Positions 12,880 through 32,718 of a stretch of DNA of 64,000 bases are shown here, piece after piece. The stretch lies in contig OY969767.1 in assembly GCA_963702895.1 (NCBI GenBank), positions 2,080,001 to 2,144,000 on the forward strand, given 5' to 3'. Under the pieces are notes generated by a model. That model did not search any database. It was not told where the DNA came from and saw nothing but the letters and a program-made list of their open reading frames with translations. The DNA is from an uncultured Elusimicrobia bacterium (lineage in GTDB: Bacteria; Elusimicrobiota; Elusimicrobia; 2-01-FULL-59-12). The stretch's first letter is position 1. Each line of letters begins with the position of its first letter. The position numbers and the translations under genes are program-made.

Positions 12880-13521
12880 TCAAAGGTGCTGATAATGGGC
12901 AAGGCCAAAGGGCTGGTTCAAAGCGGCCTGCGACAGACGCAAAAGGAAGAAGGTAAAGGCCTTCAAGGCTTCCGGGCCTGAGCGCTCTGAGACGAACGGG
13001 ACCTTTTCGGGGTTGCCGTAGAGACCGAGCGAGTTGCGCAGGATGAAGTGATGGCCGAGACAAAGGACCCCGTCAACAGCCTGGCCGGAGGAAGCCCCTA
13101 GAAAGGAAGTCAGTTCTGACAGAGAAATAGGCTCAAAGCTGACGGCCAGGCACGCGATCTCCGACTTGCGCTTCTTGTCGAGCTTTTTAAGCTGCTTCAC
13201 GAGCGCCCCATACTGCGTCAGGTCATGTTCCGACCAGTTCTTAATTTGTAGCGTAAAGACGACTCCATCAGCCAAGAAGCTGCTCGCGTTTCCCTGCCCA
13301 AAAGGCGGAAAATTATCCGTTGTGGCGATGGCGTCAAAGGGACCCGCCTGCCTCTCTTTGAGATCAATAATCGTGCCGGGGCCCATTCGGATGGAGGTGG
13401 GAAGCAAGTTCCGGATTTGCCCAGCGAAGAAGCCGACGGCGGCCGACGGCTTTTTCGCTTTTTTATACTCCCCGAGAAGATGCTCGGTCAAATTGGAAAA
13501 ACTCTCGGTGATCGCTCCCAT
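12880..13521 (-). CDS. Hypothetical protein, possibly a degenerate PD-(D/E)xK (DUF6602-like) fold
   Basis: LLP..IRMGPGTIID...GPFDAI...P...FLADGVVFTLQIK pattern; family assignment by eye only. Confidence 0.55.
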   Translation of the reverse strand: MGAITESFSNLTEHLLGEYKKAKKPSAAVGFFAGQIRNLLPTSIRMGPGTIIDLKERQAGPFDAIATTDNFPPFGQGNASSFLADGVVFTLQIKNWSEHDLTQYGALVKQLKKLDKKRKSEIACLAVSFEPISLSELTSFLGASSGQAVDGVLCLGHHFILRNSLGLYGNPEKVPFVSERSGPEALKAFTFFLLRLSQAALNQPFGLAHYQHL

Positions 13522-15367: not shown

Positions 15368-15423
15368 AATTAACTTACGCGTAACACAATCGTCATATTG
15401 CTGTAACTTCACCGGGATACCAT
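15368..15423 (+). promoter_or_regulatory. Pho-box-like (OmpR/PhoB family) promoter
   Basis: Half-sites TTAAC/GTAAC/GTCAT/GTAAC at 15370, 15381, 15392 and 15403 (11-bp period); TACCAT -10 at 15418, 10 bp after the last half-site. Confidence 0.7.
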
Positions 15424-15468: not shown

Positions 15469-15497
15469 TTGACCATCAAAAAAGCCTCTGTTAAACT
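15469..15497 (+). promoter_or_regulatory. Sigma70-type promoter for the TPR operon
   Basis: TTGACC-17 bp-TAAACT with extended -10 TG at 15489-15490. Confidence 0.7.
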
Positions 15498-15556: not shown

Positions 15557-18500
15557 ATGAAAAGGTCATTAACATCTTTTGAGAGGCCAAGGTTTCTGCG
15601 CGTTATCTGCGCGGGAATCCTGACTTGGTGTTCAACCTTCAATCTGGGACTTGAGGCCCAGGAGAAAAAAGTTTTCTCCCATGTCGCTGATGTGAAGCTT
15701 GGCAATGACGATGCCCTTCTCGATGTTTACAAATCCCTCTCGGAGCGCTTTGAGGACGAATATCGCGCCATTGGGACCGCCTATACGGTTGGCGAAAATC
15801 TTTATATGCAAAAACGATTCGATGATGCCATCAAGAATTTTGACATGGTCATCGCACGGGCCAGCAAGAAGCACGCTTTTCTGGCCGACGCAGCTCGACT
15901 GCGCCTCGCCCAATCTTATCTTATGAACGGCGCGTCCTCCATGGCTCTTGTGAAAGCACGCGACGTGGCGAATTCTTCGAATAAATTCCTCGCCGCGGAG
16001 GCGTGGTACGCGTTGTCTCGGGGGTATCTGGCCAGCGGCAAAATCGACCGCGCCGAAGACGCCTATAAAAACATTCTGACCGTCAACCCTGTCTATGGGG
16101 GTCGTCTGAAGGTCGATCTCCTTTCCGGGCTTTTGGCCTACGAGAAGGGAGCTTATTTGGACGCCGCGATCCACTTTCAAAAACATTCGGACAATATTCC
16201 ATCGCTCTACTATTCCATCGCGTGTTTCTGCCAGATGAAGGACATCGCCAAGGCCGTTTCGGCCTATCAAAATCTTCTCGCCAGGGCTAAGAAGGGCACC
16301 TGGGTCGACCGCGCGCGCATCCTGATCGGCGAAGCCATCTACCAGACCAAAGATTATGACCTCGCGATGACCTTCTTTGGTCCAGTCAGCCGTCGGGACG
16401 CTCCAGTCCATTTGCGCGTGCTGGCCCTGTATCGCCTGGCCTGCATCGACTTTCAAAAGAAAAACTACACGCGCTGTGAGCTCACCTTGCAAAACCTTCT
16501 TAAAGATTTTCCCAACCACGCCCTGCGGACCGATTGGCTCTATCTGATCGCGACCATTCCGGTCTATCAGCGCGACTGGAACCGCACGATCAAGGAAGAA
16601 GGACGCTTTGCTTCCAGCGGCAAAGGCTCAACGCCAGCCCCGCGTTCGATTCCCCAAGACCAGCTCGCCCCCGAAGCTCAGTTCCGCGTCATTTGGGCGA
16701 CCATGGCCCTTGGAAAATACGCCGACGTCACACGACTTACGGACAAGTTCTACCGAAAGTATGAGCAGAACCCCTTAAGCGGCTACGCCTTGCTCTTGCA
16801 AGGGGTCGCTTACGATCAACTGAATAACACGGACAAGGCCATTGACGCCTATCAGACCATTGTCGACCTCTATCCTCATAGTCCAGCCGCTGGCAAAGCC
16901 GTCTACCTCATGACGCTAAGCCTCCACAAAGCGAAGGAACCGACCAGGATCGTGAGCGCCTTGAACCATCTCAATGAAAACCTGCAGCGCCAAGAAGAGA
17001 TCAAGTCCGACGCGTGGCGCAAGATCACCCTCTATTGGATCGCGGAGGGGTATTACTCCATTCAGGACTATGTTCATGCGGAACAAACCTATCAACGGTT
17101 TGTGGATCTTGCACCCGATCATCCGATGACCCCCTACGCCCTTCAAGGCCTTGCGGCAAGCCTTGCCTCTCAGGGGCCTGAGAAAATCGACAAAGCCAAG
17201 GTCTATATGCAACAAGCCATGCAGCGCGCCCAGGAGCTGGGCAACGGCCCTGTGGCGGCTGACGCGAAACTCCAGTACGGCAAGATCCTCTTTAATCAGA
17301 AGAACTATGATCTCGCCCTGGCCCAATTTGACAGCTATGTGCAGGAATCGACCAGCACCGCCCGCGTCGCGGAAGCGCTCTTTGCGGCCGGCAAAACGTT
17401 GTACAACCAGCAGTATTTCACGGAGGCCATCGCGCGGTGGAAGCAGCTGATCGATGGCTATCGCTTCTCCCCCCTACGCATTGAATCTTATCTGAAAACG
17501 GGCCAGACCCGGTTTGGACTGGGCCAGTACGATCAAGCGATCGCCGCTTATCAGTCGCTTGTGGCCAACTATCCCAACACCCCCCAAGCGCAGGAGGCCC
17601 AGTTCCAGATTATTCAGTGCTACTACAACAAAGGGGACCTGCGGAGCGCCTATCAGCAATTCTCCGCGTTTAAAAACAGTTTTCCTGCGGATGAGCGGAT
17701 CCGGGGAGTTTGCGAAAACCTTCTGGCCTCCTACCAAAACCAGGCTGGCGCCTCCTCGACGCTCCACTCCGCGGAACTCAGCGATCTCTTGAGGTCCTGT
17801 CAGGGCTCGGGCACGGCTTCCGCGATCCTCTGGGAGCGCGGGGCGAATCTTTTCAACAAGAAGGATTATGCCGCCGCGCAAAAATATTTCCAACGCATCA
17901 TGCTATCGTACCCCAACGATGATTACGCCGGCCAAGCTTACTATTACAACGCGGAATGCTATTTCTTCCTGAACGACATGGACCAGGCGGCTGGCGCCTA
18001 CAAGAGCTTTTTCATCAACTACCCCAATGACAAAATGGTTCCGCAGGCCATGTACCAGGTGGGCGTGAGCTTCTTTAAGAAATCCGACTTTAAAAAAGCG
18101 GCAGAGGCTTTCGATGAGTTCGTCAAGCGCTACCCGCAGCATTCGCTGGCCAAAGACGCCGCCATCAATGTGGCGCTGTGCTACAAAAAGGCCTTCCGCT
18201 TAGATGAGGCGATCACGTCCTATCGCAACTATCTGCTGCTTTATCCGAACGACCCCAAAGTGCCCTTCGTCCGCATGCAAATCGGGTCGCTCAAAGCCAC
18301 CAAAGGAAATTTCAAAGAGGCCATCGCTGAATACGAGTCCGTGCCCTCCGGCACCGCCGAACGGGCCGAGGCCCAGTACCGAATAGGTGAGGCTTACCAA
18401 AACCTCCATCAGACGGACCAGGCCCTGGCCGCATGGCAAAGACTTTTGACCATCGGGCCTCGTGACAACGAATTTCGTATCGCAGGGCTTCTCGAGGCTG

Positions 18501-18637
18501 CTAAAATCCTCGAAGCCAAAGGGTCTTCGCAAGGGTTGGCCACGATTTACTCGGATATTGCCGGATCGAGCAAGAACCAGCAGATCGTGCTCCACGCCCG
18601 GCAACAATTGAAGCAGCTAAAAGGAGGAGCACAATAA
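15557..18637 (+). CDS. Large exported tetratricopeptide-repeat protein (YbgF/BamD-like repeats)
   Basis: Probable signal peptide (..LGLEA|Q); many YP-x-S/T-P-x-A-type TPR units over 1026 aa. Confidence 0.88.
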   Translation: MKRSLTSFERPRFLRVICAGILTWCSTFNLGLEAQEKKVFSHVADVKLGNDDALLDVYKSLSERFEDEYRAIGTAYTVGENLYMQKRFDDAIKNFDMVIARASKKHAFLADAARLRLAQSYLMNGASSMALVKARDVANSSNKFLAAEAWYALSRGYLASGKIDRAEDAYKNILTVNPVYGGRLKVDLLSGLLAYEKGAYLDAAIHFQKHSDNIPSLYYSIACFCQMKDIAKAVSAYQNLLARAKKGTWVDRARILIGEAIYQTKDYDLAMTFFGPVSRRDAPVHLRVLALYRLACIDFQKKNYTRCELTLQNLLKDFPNHALRTDWLYLIATIPVYQRDWNRTIKEEGRFASSGKGSTPAPRSIPQDQLAPEAQFRVIWATMALGKYADVTRLTDKFYRKYEQNPLSGYALLLQGVAYDQLNNTDKAIDAYQTIVDLYPHSPAAGKAVYLMTLSLHKAKEPTRIVSALNHLNENLQRQEEIKSDAWRKITLYWIAEGYYSIQDYVHAEQTYQRFVDLAPDHPMTPYALQGLAASLASQGPEKIDKAKVYMQQAMQRAQELGNGPVAADAKLQYGKILFNQKNYDLALAQFDSYVQESTSTARVAEALFAAGKTLYNQQYFTEAIARWKQLIDGYRFSPLRIESYLKTGQTRFGLGQYDQAIAAYQSLVANYPNTPQAQEAQFQIIQCYYNKGDLRSAYQQFSAFKNSFPADERIRGVCENLLASYQNQAGASSTLHSAELSDLLRSCQGSGTASAILWERGANLFNKKDYAAAQKYFQRIMLSYPNDDYAGQAYYYNAECYFFLNDMDQAAGAYKSFFINYPNDKMVPQAMYQVGVSFFKKSDFKKAAEAFDEFVKRYPQHSLAKDAAINVALCYKKAFRLDEAITSYRNYLLLYPNDPKVPFVRMQIGSLKATKGNFKEAIAEYESVPSGTAERAEAQYRIGEAYQNLHQTDQALAAWQRLLTIGPRDNEFRIAGLLEAAKILEAKGSSQGLATIYSDIAGSSKNQQIVLHARQQLKQLKGGAQ

Positions 18638-19270
18638 ATGGAACACATGACATTGATCGGTATTCTCAAAATCAGTCTGGTCATTCCCGTCCTGATGGTC
18701 TGTTCGGTCATTATGGTGGCGTACTTCTTCGAGCGTTTCTGGGCGTTCATGAGAGTCGGAAGCTTGGACGGCGTCGTCGCCGAGCGCATCAAACAGTGCG
18801 TTCGCCAGGGACAAATCAAGGAAGCGATCGCGCATTGTGCGAAGAACCCGGGCTTCATCACCCACGCGCTGGAAGTCGCCCTCAATGCCGCCCACTTCCC
18901 GAGAGAAGAGATGGAGAGCATTCTTTCGCTCTACCACATGAAACTCCAGGGCCTCTTGAACAAGCACCTGGCGGTTTTCGGGACCTTCGCCTTCATCGGG
19001 CCTCTCCTGGGGCTTTTGGGGACCGTCCTCGGCGTGATCCGCGCCTTCCGTGACCTTGCTCTGTCGGGGTCCGGTGGTCCGACCATCGTCGCTGCAGGGA
19101 TCGCAGAAGCCTTGATCGCAACGGCGGTCGGAATCGCTGTGGCGGTCACGTCTTCACTGATCTACAACTACTTCACGGCACGCGTGCGCACCATTGTCAC
19201 GCAGTTTGACCTCTTAAGCCAAGAAGTTGCGATTCTCGTTTATACAGGAAGCGAGAAAGGGCATAGGTGA
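18638..19270 (+). CDS. MotA/TolQ/ExbB proton channel
   Basis: PLLGLLGTVLGVIRAF, AGIAEALIATAVGIAVA; AGGAG RBS. Confidence 0.95.
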   Translation: MEHMTLIGILKISLVIPVLMVCSVIMVAYFFERFWAFMRVGSLDGVVAERIKQCVRQGQIKEAIAHCAKNPGFITHALEVALNAAHFPREEMESILSLYHMKLQGLLNKHLAVFGTFAFIGPLLGLLGTVLGVIRAFRDLALSGSGGPTIVAAGIAEALIATAVGIAVAVTSSLIYNYFTARVRTIVTQFDLLSQEVAILVYTGSEKGHR

Positions 19271-19273
19271 TTT

Positions 19274-19696
19274 ATGTCTGACGTCAGGCAGACGGATTCG
19301 GGGGACCCCCTCAACGAAGTGAACGTCATTCCGCTGGCGGATCTTTCGCTGGTGCTGCTCATTATCTTGATGGTGATTTCCCCCATGATCATGCAGTCCA
19401 TGATCAAGGTGCAGTCGAGCCGCGCGACGATCGCCCGATCGGCGGCAGAGAAGGACCAGGAGCCTCCGCTCATCCTCGCGCTGAACAAATCAGGAGTTTC
19501 GCTCAACACCGTTGTGATGAAAGACGATGTCGACCTGGCCTCCAGGCTCGCTGCGGCCCTCGGAAACCGTGAGGACAAGACCGTTCTTATCACGGCGGAC
19601 CCCGCGGTGGAGCATGGCCGCTTTGTGCGGGTGTTGGACCTCGTCAAACAGCAAGGGGCAGAAAAGATCGCGCTCCTGAAGAAGGCAAAATCATGA
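19274..19696 (+). CDS. ExbD/TolR family protein 1
   Basis: EVNVIPLADLSLVLLIILMV (channel Asp retained); ITAD motif. Confidence 0.93.
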   Translation: MSDVRQTDSGDPLNEVNVIPLADLSLVLLIILMVISPMIMQSMIKVQSSRATIARSAAEKDQEPPLILALNKSGVSLNTVVMKDDVDLASRLAAALGNREDKTVLITADPAVEHGRFVRVLDLVKQQGAEKIALLKKAKS

Positions 19697-20121
19697 AATA
19701 TAAACCACGCTCGGAAGACTTCGAGTCGCTTTCGGGGGTCAACATCATCCCGGTGATTGATGTGTCGCTGGTGCTCCTGATCATTCTTCTGGCCACCTCT
19801 CCCATCCTCAATCTGCCGGGTTTTGAGGTCAAACTCCCGAAAGCGGTCACGGCCGAAAGCAAAGAAAAAAACATCAGCATCAGCCTCTCTCTCCAAGGAT
19901 ACATGGCCGTCAACGAACAGAGCGTCGATGAAACAACGCTCGTGCGCGTTCTGCGCAAGGAACTCAAAGATAAACCTGAATTTTTAGTCATCATCCGGGC
20001 CGACCAGGGTGCCCCGTATGGGAAGGTGGAACGCATGATGGACCTCGCCAAACAAGCCGGGGCCCGTCGAATCGCGATCGCCACACAGCAAGAACAGGAA
20101 AAGGTGGTGAAAACCCAATGA
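19693..20121 (+). CDS. ExbD/TolR family protein 2
   Basis: VNIIPVIDVSLVLLIILL, VKLPKA, IRADQGAPYG. Confidence 0.93.
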   Translation: MKYKPRSEDFESLSGVNIIPVIDVSLVLLIILLATSPILNLPGFEVKLPKAVTAESKEKNISISLSLQGYMAVNEQSVDETTLVRVLRKELKDKPEFLVIIRADQGAPYGKVERMMDLAKQAGARRIAIATQQEQEKVVKTQ

Positions 20122-21371
20122 TCCTCGCTATCGACACGCGCCTGAGTTCCACCAAAACGCAGGAAACGGTCAGCATGACGCTGGCGATCCTCTTGCACGC
20201 GCTCCTGCTGTATTGGGATCCCACGCTCCTGACCAGCCATTACAAACCCATCCACGATTTCGTCACGATCGATATCGTGGAGCAAGCGGCACCCGGCGGT
20301 TTTGAGCAGCCGGCGCCCAAAAAGATGAGCCTGATGGACACTTTGAAGGACATGCTCATGAAGCCTCGCGAGGAGCAAATCGCGCATGTGGCGCCACAGC
20401 AGCCCTTCGTGAACAAAGTGGCCGCCCCGGTGCAGCCTGCTCTTCAAAACAAGAACATGCCGAAACCCATCGCCACGAGCTTTCAGCCCAAGAGCCAGAT
20501 GGAAGACCTCGCCTCGGCGAGCTCTCCGAATGCCATTAAAACGGATTCCAAGAATTTCAATATTCCTACGCCCGGCCCTACCCTCACGACAAAGAGCTAT
20601 GGCGGGATCAAAGCCAAGGACCTTCCGTTCCAAGTGGGGACCGACCAGCAGTTGGCAGGCGGCTCAGCCGTTATACCCATCGCGGTTGGCAATTCGTCCG
20701 CCAAAGGCGCTCTGGGCTACAGCAATCCCTCCTTGAAGGATGCGGGTAAAAGCAAAGGGATCAGCGTGTCCAGTCTTGGATCAGGCCCTTCCCGTGATAT
20801 CAGTTCGATCGGTGGCGGAGCATCTTCCACCATCGAGATTTCAGGCACCGGCGGCACGGGCAACGCTCCGACCGGAGCCACCCATGGGCAAGTTCTCAGC
20901 GATCGATCCGGTGGACCGGGAGGCGGCGGGCGCGTGGCAGGGAGCTGGTTCGGATCGGGACGCAGTGGCGGCGGTTTTGGGGCAGGTGTTCAAGGCATCC
21001 CCAGCGCGGCAGCGGACTTGGACGCGCAACTCGCAGCTTCCGCCAGCGGCTCAGGCCGCGGCATGAAATCGAAGAAAGGCTTTGAGATTGCCGGCCCCCT
21101 CAACAACCGAACGATTGTGAGAAAAGTAATCCCACAATATCCGGCTTGGGCCGAAGAACAGGGCATTATCGGCTCTGTTCGTATATGGTTCATGGTCACA
21201 GGCGATGGGCAGGTGCGCTCCAATATGCGTCTGACCAAGACCACGGGATACCCCGAGCTGGACAAATTGGCTCTGGACGCCCTCCGACAATGGCGATTTG
21301 CCAGCTTCAGCTCGGGGGATGAAGCCGGCCAATGGGGCATCATCACCTTCACGTTCTCGCTGTCCTCTTAA
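20118..21371 (+). CDS. TonB-family energy transducer with long Gly/Ser-rich linker
   Basis: N-terminal TM with conserved His (AILLHALL); C-terminal PQYPAWAEEQGIIGSV...LDKLALDALRQWRF...ITFTF. Confidence 0.88.
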   Translation: MILAIDTRLSSTKTQETVSMTLAILLHALLLYWDPTLLTSHYKPIHDFVTIDIVEQAAPGGFEQPAPKKMSLMDTLKDMLMKPREEQIAHVAPQQPFVNKVAAPVQPALQNKNMPKPIATSFQPKSQMEDLASASSPNAIKTDSKNFNIPTPGPTLTTKSYGGIKAKDLPFQVGTDQQLAGGSAVIPIAVGNSSAKGALGYSNPSLKDAGKSKGISVSSLGSGPSRDISSIGGGASSTIEISGTGGTGNAPTGATHGQVLSDRSGGPGGGGRVAGSWFGSGRSGGGFGAGVQGIPSAAADLDAQLAASASGSGRGMKSKKGFEIAGPLNNRTIVRKVIPQYPAWAEEQGIIGSVRIWFMVTGDGQVRSNMRLTKTTGYPELDKLALDALRQWRFASFSSGDEAGQWGIITFTFSLSS

Positions 21372-21382
21372 GGAGAAAACGG

Positions 21383-22432
21383 ATGTCGAACAGGCCTTAT
21401 CCATCGAAGCATGGGAGCGCGAACCAGGGACTCTCGGTCCTGGTGCTCTTCACGCTTCTGTCCTCGGCAGGGTCCACTCCTGTCTGGAGCGCCAAGCCGG
21501 CCAAGACGGGATCCGCCACCAAGAAGGCGGCGCCCGCTCCGGCGGCAGCCCCTGCTGACACACACGCGCCAGCGCCGAAGGCGGTCCCGACTTCGACGGT
21601 CAAGCAAGTCAAAGAAGGAGAACTTAACGTCAGTATCACAGGCGAGCTCAAAGACAAGATGACAATTGGGAAAATCGATCCACCCGCGGCCTTCAACCTG
21701 GAGGACATCCAGAACTTCCCTCAGGAGAGGCTGCAGCCCGTGCTGAACAATCCCATTACCTTTGAAGAAGGGCGAGACTTCTCAAGCATGATGGACTCCC
21801 TCGATGATAAAGTGGTCCACCCGTGGCTCCCCGAGATCCCCCGAGAGCCCTTTTTGACCATGAAGGTGCAGTTGGAGAAGCCCACCAAGGACTGGCGCTT
21901 CTCCGTGATCGACCAGGGCGGCACGCCCGTGTCCTCCCAGGAGGGAAAAGGCTCTCCCCCCGACACGTTCACCTGGTCGGGTGAAGACAAGAGCCGCGGC
22001 CATATGGCGGTGGATACCGTCTACATCCCCCAGCTTTCGACCACCGACAAAGAAGGCTACCGGCACACGTATATGGGCCATCCGGCGCAATTTGCCACTT
22101 TTCTATTGAATGACAAGGGCCGTTCTACGATCGAGATCTCAAGTAAAAGGCTCTTTTTAGAAAACAAAGCAGAGTTCACCAAAGAAGCGCCGGTCCTTCT
22201 TGAGAAGGTCTGCGATTTCATCCGTGAAGAAGCGCGCATCCCTTTCGCGATCCAGGTCTTTGACATGAATCTGGAGTTGGGCAAGTCCCGCCAAGACACG
22301 CTTGCGAAATATCTCAGCGAAAATCTCATGATTTCCCCTTCCCAAATCACGCTCCTTGGCACGGCTGCCGCGGATAAGCGTGGACAGGCGATCGCGCTCA
22401 CGTTGAATAACACGCCGGGAGGCTCCGAATGA
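21383..22432 (+). CDS. Exported protein: Pro/Ala linker, FlgD-Ig-like domain, degenerate OmpA-like C-terminus
   Basis: AGGAG RBS before ATG 21383; signal peptide; W-x-G-x-D-x3-G..Y...L...D..G pattern; OmpA-like spacing without GHTD. Domain calls by eye. Confidence 0.6.
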   Translation: MSNRPYPSKHGSANQGLSVLVLFTLLSSAGSTPVWSAKPAKTGSATKKAAPAPAAAPADTHAPAPKAVPTSTVKQVKEGELNVSITGELKDKMTIGKIDPPAAFNLEDIQNFPQERLQPVLNNPITFEEGRDFSSMMDSLDDKVVHPWLPEIPREPFLTMKVQLEKPTKDWRFSVIDQGGTPVSSQEGKGSPPDTFTWSGEDKSRGHMAVDTVYIPQLSTTDKEGYRHTYMGHPAQFATFLLNDKGRSTIEISSKRLFLENKAEFTKEAPVLLEKVCDFIREEARIPFAIQVFDMNLELGKSRQDTLAKYLSENLMISPSQITLLGTAAADKRGQAIALTLNNTPGGSE

Positions 22433-23028
22433 AAACCTCAAGGATTCTTCTCCGTTGGTCCGTGCTCCTGGCAGCGTTTTGTGTTCTATCTCCGGGTGCG
22501 CAAGCGGAAGACCGGACGGGCTCTGCCGATCAGAGCGACAGTAACTATTACTGGCAGGGAACGCAGCTCTACAACCTCGGACGGCTGGGGGAGGCCTTTG
22601 AGAGCTTTGAGAAGGCGATCCAGCGTAAACAAAACTCCAAAGAAGCGGAAGCCTATTTGCTCCAGATCCGTCAAGAAATCGTGACCAACGCCAAGAAACG
22701 CTCGAACGAGAGCAGGGCTCTGGAATATGGCGGCAACAGCCCCGACACGGCGCTCAACATCGCTTATGTCGAGAAAGGTTTTATTCGCGTGACGGTGCTG
22801 GCGAAGTTCCTCTTCGATGAAAACACCACGTCACTGAAGACCGGCGCGATGGAAGTGATCAACAAACTGGCGAACGTCCTGCAGAACAAAGAAGGCCAGC
22901 GCGTGCAGGTGACACTTGTGAATGAACTCGATAATATTGTGAATGCTCGCGACGTCGACGCGGAACGGGCGCTGCTCGTCTTTTCACTTCTGAACCTTAA
23001 GCGCCTGGCCCCTGAAAACCCCGCCTAA
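22429..23028 (+). CDS. Exported TPR + truncated OmpA/MotB-C-like protein
   Basis: Signal peptide (GAQA|E); one TPR; FLFDENTTSLK...INKLANVL...ERALLV. Confidence 0.6.
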   Translation: MKTSRILLRWSVLLAAFCVLSPGAQAEDRTGSADQSDSNYYWQGTQLYNLGRLGEAFESFEKAIQRKQNSKEAEAYLLQIRQEIVTNAKKRSNESRALEYGGNSPDTALNIAYVEKGFIRVTVLAKFLFDENTTSLKTGAMEVINKLANVLQNKEGQRVQVTLVNELDNIVNARDVDAERALLVFSLLNLKRLAPENPA

Positions 23029-31501: not shown

Positions 31502-32718
31502 TATTTTTTATCGAGCCCGAACGCCTTGTGCAGCACCCGCACGGCATCATCCACGTGGTCTCGAGAGATGACACAAGAGATCTTGATCTCGGAAGTCGAG
31601 ATCATCTGAATGTTGATTTTGGCCTCGGCGAGCGCCTCAAACATCTTGGAGGCCACCCCCGCATGGCTGCGCATCCCCACACCCACGACGGCAACTTTGC
31701 CGATGTTGGCCGTATGCACGAGGTCCTCGGCCTCGAGCGCGACTTTCACGGGGCGCAACGCCCGGAGCGCCTTTTTGAGGTCGCCTTCGCTCACCGTAAA
31801 GGAGATATCGTTTTTCCTGTCGACCGCTTCTGACTGAATGATCATGTCGACGTTAATGCCCGCCTTGCCGAGCGCGCCAAAGATCTTGGCCGCCACGCCG
31901 GGCCGATCGGGAATTTCCACGATCGAAATTTTGGCCTGCTTGCGATCAAAGGCCACGCCTGAGACCACCACATTTTCCATGTGCCTCACCTCCTTGTGCA
32001 CCCGGGTCCCGGGCGCCTGTGAAAAAGTTGACCGAACCTCAAAGACCACATCATATTTTTTCGCGACTTCCACGGATCTTCCCTGCATGACCTGGGCGCC
32101 CGCGCCGGCTAGCTCCAGCATCTCATCGTAGGAAATCTCATCAAGCTTGCGGGCTGCCGGCACCACCCGCGGGTCGGTCGTGTAAATGCCTTCCACATCC
32201 GTATAAATCTCGCAGAGATCGGCCTTGAGCGCCGCGGCCAGGGCGATCGCGGTCAGATCCGAGCCGCCGCGGCCGAGCGTCGCGATATCATCGTTGGGGT
32301 TGAGGCCCTGAAAACCCGCCACGACGACGACGCGCCGTTTGGCGAGTTCGGACCATATCTTTTTGGGCAGGATGTGCGTGATGCGCGCGCGCGTGTGGCT
32401 GGCATCGGCAAAGATGCCCGCCTGGGGACCGGTGAGCGAAATCGCCGCCTGCCCTTTGGCATGGAGCGCCATGCAAAGAAGCGCAATGGAGGCCTGCTCG
32501 CCGGTCGCCAAGAGCATATCCATCTCGCGCGGCGGGGCGCTCCGGGTAATGCCTTCCGCCATCTCGATCAAGTCATCCGTCATGTCGCCAGGGGCGGAGA
32601 CGACCACGACGACCCTGTAGCCCTCTTTTTTCTTGGCGATGATCCGCCCCGCGACATGCTTGACTTTCTGGGCATCCGCGACGGAAGATCCCCCAAACTT
32701 CATGACCACAAGCTTCAT
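31501..32718 (-). CDS. lysC: Aspartate kinase
   Basis: VMKFGGSSV, TLGRGGSDLTA, two ACT domains. Start revised to 32718. Confidence 0.96.
   Translation of the reverse strand: MKLVVMKFGGSSVADAQKVKHVAGRIIAKKKEGYRVVVVVSAPGDMTDDLIEMAEGITRSAPPREMDMLLATGEQASIALLCMALHAKGQAAISLTGPQAGIFADASHTRARITHILPKKIWSELAKRRVVVVAGFQGLNPNDDIATLGRGGSDLTAIALAAALKADLCEIYTDVEGIYTTDPRVVPAARKLDEISYDEMLELAGAGAQVMQGRSVEVAKKYDVVFEVRSTFSQAPGTRVHKEVRHMENVVVSGVAFDRKQAKISIVEIPDRPGVAAKIFGALGKAGINVDMIIQSEAVDRKNDISFTVSEGDLKKALRALRPVKVALEAEDLVHTANIGKVAVVGVGMRSHAGVASKMFEALAEAKINIQMISTSEIKISCVISRDHVDDAVRVLHKAFGLDKK

Follow-up and report, generated by a model that had tools for sequence, protein, structure and literature searches.

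We analysed a group of seven genes for a putative proton-driven motor of the Ton/Tol kind and its periplasmic partners, located in a 64,000-nt stretch of DNA (the window; contig OY969767.1, positions 2,080,001 to 2,144,000, assembly GCA_963702895.1) of an uncultured Elusimicrobia bacterium whose genome comprises 2.72 Mb in one contig (positions on it are given with the prefix C1) and is 98% complete. The seven open reading frames are present on the + strand at 15557..23028 in the order TPR-ExbB-ExbD-ExbD-TonB-X-Y, TPR being a giant tetratricopeptide repeat (TPR) protein of 1026 aa and X and Y two proteins with OmpA-like domains. Successive gaps measure 0, 3, -4, -4, 11, and -4 nt, in agreement with the tight coupling of the seven genes noted in a preliminary description made from the DNA letters, and the start of X at 21383 is preceded by a ribosome-binding site. 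The operon is flanked by a divergent asd gene upstream and a convergent leuD gene downstream, both identified by inspection. Its features are:

15381..15407, + strand: three 5-nt half-sites with 11-bp spacing, of the winged-helix regulator type
15469..15497, + strand: sigma-70-type promoter with a 17-nt spacer and an extended -10 element
15557..18637, + strand: giant TPR protein, 1026 aa, a predicted periplasmic scaffold (TPR repeats by Pfam/NCBIfam)
18638..19270, + strand: ExbB/TolQ-family channel subunit, 210 aa (MotA_ExbB match)
19274..19696, + strand: ExbD/TolR paralog 1, 140 aa, with Asp23 (ExbD match)
19693..20121, + strand: ExbD/TolR paralog 2, 142 aa, with Asp23 (ExbD match)
20118..21371, + strand: TonB-like transducer, 417 aa (TonB_C match)
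21383..22432, + strand: protein X, 349 aa (OmpA-like C-terminal fold)
21617..21652, + strand: TonB-box-like strand of X, residues 79-90, the predicted target of TonB-C
22429..23028, + strand: protein Y, 199 aa (TPR hairpin and truncated OmpA-like domain)

Searches with Pfam and NCBIfam models support the families assigned earlier to the first five genes, with matches to MotA_ExbB (E 7e-27), ExbD (E 1e-17 and 3e-24), TonB_C (E 5e-11), and TPR repeats. ExbB has three hydrophobic segments, and its residues T129 and T162 do not vary across an alignment of 15 rows. The two ExbD paralogs are 32% identical to each other and, as had been stated, both keep the channel aspartate, the transmembrane residue being D23 in each. 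The TonB protein is composed of a membrane helix with His27, a Pro-rich and then Gly/Ser-rich linker, and a TonB-C domain; its middle section contains 24% Gly and 17% Ser, which bears out its description as glycine-rich. His27 has an alanine at position -4, the pattern [SA]xxxH occurs in 87 of 93 homologue rows, and all PDB matches of the TonB-C domain (16 of 16) are TonB proteins. The features of the Ton/Tol 5:2 motor family, namely the ExbB threonines, the ExbD aspartate, the SxxxH-type helix, and the TonB/TolA C-domain, are thus all found in this operon. The TPR protein has a signal peptide (by inspection) and no membrane helix, and its best NCBIfam model is YbgF/CpoB, matched through its repeats.

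Protein X consists of a signal peptide (by inspection), a disordered arm carrying the box, an immunoglobulin-like (Ig) domain resembling FlgD (approximately residues 150-240), and an OmpA-like domain (approximately residues 245-342). In an AlphaFold2 model based on a 56-row alignment, the arm (residues 1-145) has low confidence and the per-residue score pLDDT exceeds 90 from about residue 150. The OmpA-like domain was recognised by Foldseek (E 2e-6) and superimposes on a cell-wall anchor of a type VI secretion system (VIA Z 13.4, root-mean-square deviation (rmsd) 1.8), and the Ig part matches FlgD with Z 7-8. Arg303 is conserved in 61% of the rows, and the acidic loop seems shortened on inspection. 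A lipobox was not seen by inspection of X, and therefore no outer-membrane tether is encoded in the operon. Protein Y comprises a signal peptide, a TPR hairpin, and a truncated OmpA-like domain, for which the evidence is weaker (Z 7.1, rmsd 2.6 over 84 residues; hhalign to X with a probability of 92.9), and a Foldseek search with Y returned nothing at E≤0.001. Of the two degenerate OmpA-like proteins of the preliminary description, X therefore has a clear fold and Y a less certain one. We infer from these folds that X, and likewise Y, may bind peptidoglycan through their degenerate OmpA-like domains. Y was seen solely in the family of the source genome, in both copies of the gene set discussed below. 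In four other loci (L045, L047, L108, and L113), the position of Y after X is occupied by a protein of approximately 270 aa with an N-terminal TPR-like hairpin, behind which lies a barrel-like gene without a Pfam match.

The arm of X contains a conserved strand. In 78 aligned rows, position 85 is Ile or Val in 78, position 87 is Gly in 59, and position 82 is Asp or Glu in 55; the window copy has Asn at position 82. The box motif occurs in 43 of 78 N-termini of X, compared with a mean of 5.2 and a maximum of 14 after shuffling, and in one of 68 TPR and one of 29 PorV N-termini used as controls. Similar boxes are seen in 5 of 10 TonB-dependent receptors of the phylum that were compared, e.g. LDEVVVTA. 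A pairing of TonB-C with the box of X was put down as a prediction before the complex was folded. The complex of TonB-C with residues 70-125 of X reached a score of 0.47, against 0.10 for the best control, so that weak support was obtained for a contact between TonB-C and an OmpA-like protein, a pairing already named in the preliminary description, the arm of X being the part concerned. The three runs scored 0.47, 0.48, and 0.12, with at least 61% shared contacts and a partner pLDDT of at least 43. The mark used for such scores was reached by 116 of 157 solved pairs and by 2 of 215 mismatched pairs, and the scores that lie above it and do not exceed 0.60 belong to 18 solved pairs and to both mismatched ones.

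For a synteny survey, operon loci were collected around X matches in a sample of 151 genomes of the phylum, together with 80 GTDB loci found via an ExbB alignment, a search biased towards the ExbB clade of the window. The survey yielded 94 distinct operons with ExbB, ExbD, and X, among which a TPR gene is present in 86, two ExbD genes in 94, and TonB in 87; the conserved core is thus TPR-ExbB-ExbD-ExbD-TonB-X, without Y. No receptor gene was found at the 94 loci in the DNA covered, and one locus has a TolB-like gene approximately 7 kb away. What some of these operons do have nearby is a PorV-family barrel, the outer-membrane carrier type of type IX secretion. Among the 70 operons with visible upstream DNA, a PorV barrel lies within 300 nt in 22, and 21 of these 22 also have a protein with a C-terminal sorting domain (CTD), usually 1,800-2,000 aa of Ig-like repeats, whereas none of 20 control loci linked to Tol genes or receptors has PorV. 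The resulting eight-gene form also occurs in loci labelled FCPU426, and in one genome (G004, locus L065) the PorV barrel is fused to the TPR protein, followed by X. In an IQ-TREE phylogeny of 45 of 89 ExbB rows, the window ExbB falls into a starred 16-row clade (100/99) that holds six operons with cargo and PorV, separate from the starred TolQ clades, which include the TolQ of the same genome; two receptor-linked ExbBs fall among the operon ExbBs. A related ExbB-ExbD-ExbD-TonB clade without X was observed in loci labelled Desantisbacteria and others (L127, L136, L144-L147, and L153).

The source genome contains a second, motor-less gene set in the order PorV-cargo-TPR2-X2-Y2 (C1:1,765,152-1,774,009), designated here the sister cassette. 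Its TPR, X, and Y paralogues (1,765,152-1,769,865) are 34, 26, and 27% identical to the operon copies, and X2 retains the box motif. TPR2 is immediately preceded by genes for a PorV-family barrel, matched with 177 bits at a cut-off of 90, and for an Fn3/Ig protein of 938 aa that carries a type A sorting domain. The gene order is kept in all six genomes with DNA in view, and both X copies are present in 8 of 11 genomes of the family, two 73%-complete genomes having one copy or a fragment. In a tree restricted to TPR proteins above 900 aa that score above 700 bits (73 rows), the window TPR is sister to the cassette TPR (FastTree 1.0). With its helical tail, the cassette barrel falls among other barrels of the same genome and apart from those of the eight-gene operons, which have Ig tails. 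A TPR-X-Y unit is therefore duplicated in this family, one copy being associated with the motor and the other with a carrier-cargo pair of another lineage. A clean fission of one eight-gene operon into operon and cassette was considered and rejected, as TPR, X, and Y fit a duplication while PorV and the cargo differ in lineage. The association with PorV and CTD proteins, the sister cassette, and the box of X were all missing from the preliminary description.

The genome possesses a separate set of Tol-Pal genes, with TolQ-TolR-TolA at C1:1,778,993-1,780,766 and TolB-CpoB-Pal at C1:1,671,584-1,674,131; an 873-aa CTD-bearing gene (C1:1,674,153-1,676,774) lies divergent from pal-cpoB-tolB. It also has one TonB-dependent receptor (C1:1,827,874-1,830,048), which is BtuB-like, its best models being B12 receptors matched below cut-off; an Rfam search found no riboswitch at this locus. 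All matches to receptors, TolB, and OmpA/Pal lie outside the window, as the preliminary description had noted for operon and window alike. Since the operon ExbB is distinct from the TolQ of the genome and a separate Tol-Pal set exists, the motor is neither an ordinary TolQR nor the only set of its kind in this genome. The earlier proposal of an envelope-spanning force transducer is upheld in the sense of a dedicated, uncharacterised system separate from TolQRA, TolB, Pal, and CpoB.

Of the type IX secretion components, a SprA translocon, PorV carriers, and type A CTD cargo are represented in the genome, while the GldL/GldM motor and the GldK hub were not found. Iterative searches detected 12 genes with strong matches to the PorV family, as well as 29 proteins whose C-terminus is a sorting domain, PorV_fam reaching 177 bits (cut-off 90) and Por_Secre_tail scoring above its cut-off. 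The SprA-like protein (1811 aa) scores 170.9 bits, below the cut-off of 200, and is associated with Atlas clusters with SprA_N; a phmmer search against the PDB gave no match to the solved SprA. GldK, GldL, and GldM are unmatched in the genome, and 14 control genomes passed none of these models either, so that the controls include no positive case for the sensitivity of these searches; GldN was not searched. A GldM domain above cut-off was found in none of the 151 genomes of the phylum.

We tentatively favour, with slightly less than even confidence, a mechanism in which the motor pulls the box of X and, via the TPR protein, acts on the PorV-family carrier of a CTD-tagged surface protein. ExbB, presumably as a pentamer, and the ExbD1/ExbD2 pair would turn proton flow into work on TonB. 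Proton-driven work on a transducer is established for Ton and Tol motors. The TonB-C domain is predicted to add the strand of X to its β-sheet, a contact to which the complex score lends weak support. X and Y would sit on the peptidoglycan through their OmpA-like domains, as their folds suggest, and the TPR protein may bridge X to the periplasmic tail of the PorV-family barrel. The step from motor to X is the better supported of the two, and we consider it fairly probable; the step from X to the carrier is suggested by the synteny, the single PorV-TPR fusion, and the sister cassette. The system could function in loading, releasing, or repositioning one class of carrier-adhesin pairs following their export through a SprA-like pore. 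Its client in the source genome is probably supplied in trans, with the carrier-cargo pair of the PorV-cargo-TPR2-X2-Y2 cassette as the best candidate.

Several observations weigh against this mechanism. No PorV gene is adjacent to 48 of the 70 operons, the window operon among them; in 10 of these 48, TPR and ExbB are separated by an Ig-repeat/OmpA gene, and the remaining 38 have no such gene either, although one locus counted among the 38 (L100) has PorV ahead of a split TPR gene. The loci were chosen by likeness to X or to the ExbB clade and are related to one another, so that the counts are not independent and are to be taken as descriptive, and a single clade of all operon ExbBs has a support of 39/17. 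One genome of 96% completeness (G153) has the motor operon without a second X copy. In all four genomes in view, the cassette follows TolQRA downstream at a distance of four or five genes, and TolA could therefore serve the cassette instead. Neither the barrel nor the cargo of the cassette is orthologous to its counterpart in the eight-gene operons, which implies that the pairing of TPR-X with PorV arose or was replaced more than once. Finally, the box pattern was defined after the alignment had been viewed, the complex score falls within the weak band with one of three runs at 0.12 and no contacts returned, and complexes with TonB boxes have already been solved, so that the result for TonB-C and X may reflect memory of these structures.

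The same observations can be read as a second Tol-Pal-like system for envelope remodelling without a secreted client, in which X would stand in for TolB and Pal, the TPR protein would be a giant CpoB-like partner, and the motor would strip X from the peptidoglycan or load it there, PorV neighbours being optional add-ons. This reading is somewhat unlikely. It agrees with an invariant core of TPR, motor, and X, with the PorV-less majority of operons including the 10 with an extra Ig-repeat/OmpA gene, and with the YbgF/CpoB model matched by the TPR repeats, and the box evidence fits it equally well. However, a full Tol-Pal set is already present in the genome, X has no lipobox and the operon no outer-membrane tether, and the 22 PorV-adjacent operons, the PorV-TPR fusion, and the PorV-linked cassette would be left to explain.

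A motor for surface motility resembling Agl-Glt or GldLM-SprF-SprB, which would drag a carrier barrel along the envelope together with its adhesin, is quite improbable. The layout of one ExbB, two ExbDs, a TonB-like protein, and a TPR protein is that of AglRQS-Glt (PMC3169522), and the tailed carrier with an Ig-repeat surface protein resembles SprF-SprB (PMC12635249); in addition, no FlhA match was found in the genome, and among the 89 genomes that belong to the small-genome families f2 and f12, just one has the operon TonB. Against such a function, GltG (NF033760) has no match in the genome, the 11 sub-threshold TPR matches to GltE (NF033758) in the genome do not include the window TPR, and Glt-named models are absent from the NCBIfam matches of the window, the AgmX/PglI tail scoring 17.6 bits at a cut-off of 40; GltD was not searched separately. 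A track or hub gene was not seen, the five PilT genes of the genome offer pilus motility, and the core complex alone is unlikely to drive motility according to PMC3169522. The preliminary description had likened the operon to AglRQS-Glt; the one-TolQ/two-TolR layout with TonB-C and TPR partners holds, and membership of the Glt family is not supported.

It is very unlikely that the operon is an ordinary Ton system powering the single BtuB-like receptor. The TonB-like C-terminal domain would suit this function, the genome has two TonB_C matches in all (the operon TonB and TolA), and a receptor match, found in 89 of 151 genomes, is present in 23 of the 25 genomes that match the operon TonB-C profile. 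Yet no operon locus includes a receptor, two genomes (G110 and G128) have the operon without a receptor match, and TPR, the second ExbD, X, and Y would be left unexplained. Furthermore, receptors are combined with one ExbD in 48 genomes. Of the 40 among these that were tested, 36 encode a single TonB/TolA-type protein, identified as the TolA of the Tol locus in six of six inspected; receptors of the phylum can therefore run without the operon, and many Elusimicrobiota appear to operate them with the Tol motor and TolA alone. The operon TonB may serve the receptor of its genome as a side task.

Most improbable is a general energy source of SprA-like export replacing GldLM/PorLM, which would explain SprA-like protein, PorV family, and CTD cargo in a genome without a GldK/L/M match and the SprA-like gene in all 25 operon genomes of a phylum sample in which no GldM domain scored above cut-off, but is largely ruled out by distribution, since SprA-like genes occur in 140 of 151 genomes and the operon TonB in 25, so that 115 SprA-bearing genomes, most with a single ExbD match, lack it.

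Upstream of the operon, the promoter search found one candidate compared with a shuffle mean of 0.5, and both hexamers are kept in six of six relatives. The 11-bp-spaced repeat was confirmed at 15381-15407, with 62 bp between its end and a good -35 element downstream, and recurs in a two-half-site form in two of six relatives; only the middle one of its three half-sites has the GTCAY form, as found near the pst/phoB-like genes of the genome (identified by inspection). A conserved Pho box at the -35 region was not found among the six relatives compared, so that neither control by PhoB nor the phosphate regulation considered possible in the preliminary description is supported. GTAAC-type repeats with 11-bp spacing were observed upstream of envelope genes at C1:705,366, 722,672, 727,354, and 315,258 as well as at window position 15381; the genes behind them include an Ig/OmpA gene and a CTD-PorV pair, and the repeats possibly share one regulator distinct from PhoB. 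Elsewhere in the window, a 213-aa gene on the - strand (12880-13521) has a weak DUF6602 match (E 5e-4) and sits between ydjC-like and rplM genes in several relatives, and an Rfam search of the 64 kb gave zero matches.

Other loci of the genome contain motor-like or type IX-like genes. A second motor cluster (C1:1,835,246-1,841,116; L074:11246-17116, - strand) is located behind a PorV-family barrel and comprises, with the barrel, a TPR/LysM protein, a FliF-C/FliG fusion (502 aa), MotA, and two MotB-like genes; the fusion has relatives in 55 of 151 genomes and a second copy in the source genome at C1:2,300,591. At C1:26,281-72,663 (- strand), a repeat protein of 13,690 aa (31,591-72,663) is followed by a 1,099-aa CTD reading frame and a PorV barrel with a TPR tail, the apparent frameshift near 31,650 between the two being an assembly error or real. 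The repeats of the giant resemble the cargo of the eight-gene operons (E 1e-29 at best) and such repeats occur in 42 of 151 genomes, in several of them on one contig with a FliF-FliG gene. The shared repeats make the giant a possible client of the operon, but giants of this kind are encoded in 42 of 151 genomes, and many of these lack the operon. At C1:2,185,276-2,232,109, 12 large CTD-bearing genes whose products have near-identical C-termini are arranged in tandem, and a further such gene lies on the opposite strand. A sugar-uptake-like cluster (L076:5268-12596; C1:1,965,268-1,972,596), with a group II intron upstream, encodes a 970-aa protein composed of a barrel-like region, an Ig domain, and an OmpA domain, next to small carbohydrate-binding-like proteins and a glycoside-hydrolase-like gene (by inspection).

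Known outputs of TonB-type motors are the opening of nutrient receptors, the removal of TolB from Pal, and myxobacterial gliding. The operon points to a further one, a boxed periplasmic protein associated with type-IX-style carriers. Its phylum possesses the outer-membrane half of type IX secretion but lacks the motor. The operon also names a small, concrete interaction, that of TonB-C with residues 79-90 of X, and is relevant to how proton force is transmitted to surface proteins in bacteria other than Bacteroidota. A bolder version, in which a Ton/Tol-type motor grips a boxed wall anchor and via the TPR protein hauls or retracts the carrier barrel with its adhesin, is rather unlikely; it would constitute a third adhesin-moving machine, serving surface movement or the handling of prey or particles in free-living Elusimicrobiota, with motor and client modules split over two loci.

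In comparison with known systems, the operon shares with the Ton system the motor families and residues, the His-bearing anchor, the TonB-C domain, and a predicted β-strand box target, but differs by two different ExbDs, a giant TPR protein, the absence of a receptor at any operon locus, and a box predicted on a soluble Ig/OmpA-like protein instead of a plugged barrel. With Tol-Pal it would share a motor pulling a boxed periplasmic protein, a TPR partner, and an OmpA-like cell-wall fold, whereas it has neither a TolB propeller nor a lipoprotein Pal, a complete separate set is present in the genome, and ExbB falls outside the TolQ clades. AglRQS-Glt likewise combines a one-TolQ/two-TolR motor with a TonB-like transducer and a TPR partner (Luciano et al. 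2011, PMC3169522), and the likeness extends to its core complex (AglR/Q/S, GltD/E/G/C); the operon differs by one TPR gene instead of three in Glt, a transducer without an FHA domain, and OmpA-like X and Y with PorV/CTD neighbours in homologous operons instead of GltA/B/H/K. The layout of one ExbB, two ExbDs, and TPR also occurs in the TPR-TolQ-TolR-TolR-vWA clusters of the Planctomycetes-Verrucomicrobia-Chlamydiae group (Williams-Jones et al. 2025, PMC12204202), which are likewise uncharacterised and share the TPR protein, one TolQ-like subunit, and a heterologous TolR pair encoded upstream of a His-anchored transducer; this transducer ends in vWA, whereas that of the operon ends in TonB-C and is followed by X and Y. 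In the type IX system of Bacteroidota, carrier-substrate pairs (PorV; SprF-SprB) are powered by a GldLM/PorLM chain (PMC12635249). A SprA-like pore, PorV-family barrels with periplasmic tails, and CTD-tagged Ig-repeat cargo are found in our genome and beside homologous operons, whereas GldK/L/M are unmatched in the genome and the Ton/Tol-type motor is missing from most SprA-bearing genomes of the phylum and would therefore serve particular carriers only. A description of the operon was not found in the literature searched, which consisted mostly of open texts without supplements. Judged from its sequence, the operon is expected to operate in the manner of Ton/Tol and has a layout similar to that of the Agl-Glt core complex, and it represents a real, conserved, and apparently undescribed variant of the Ton/Tol kind of motor.

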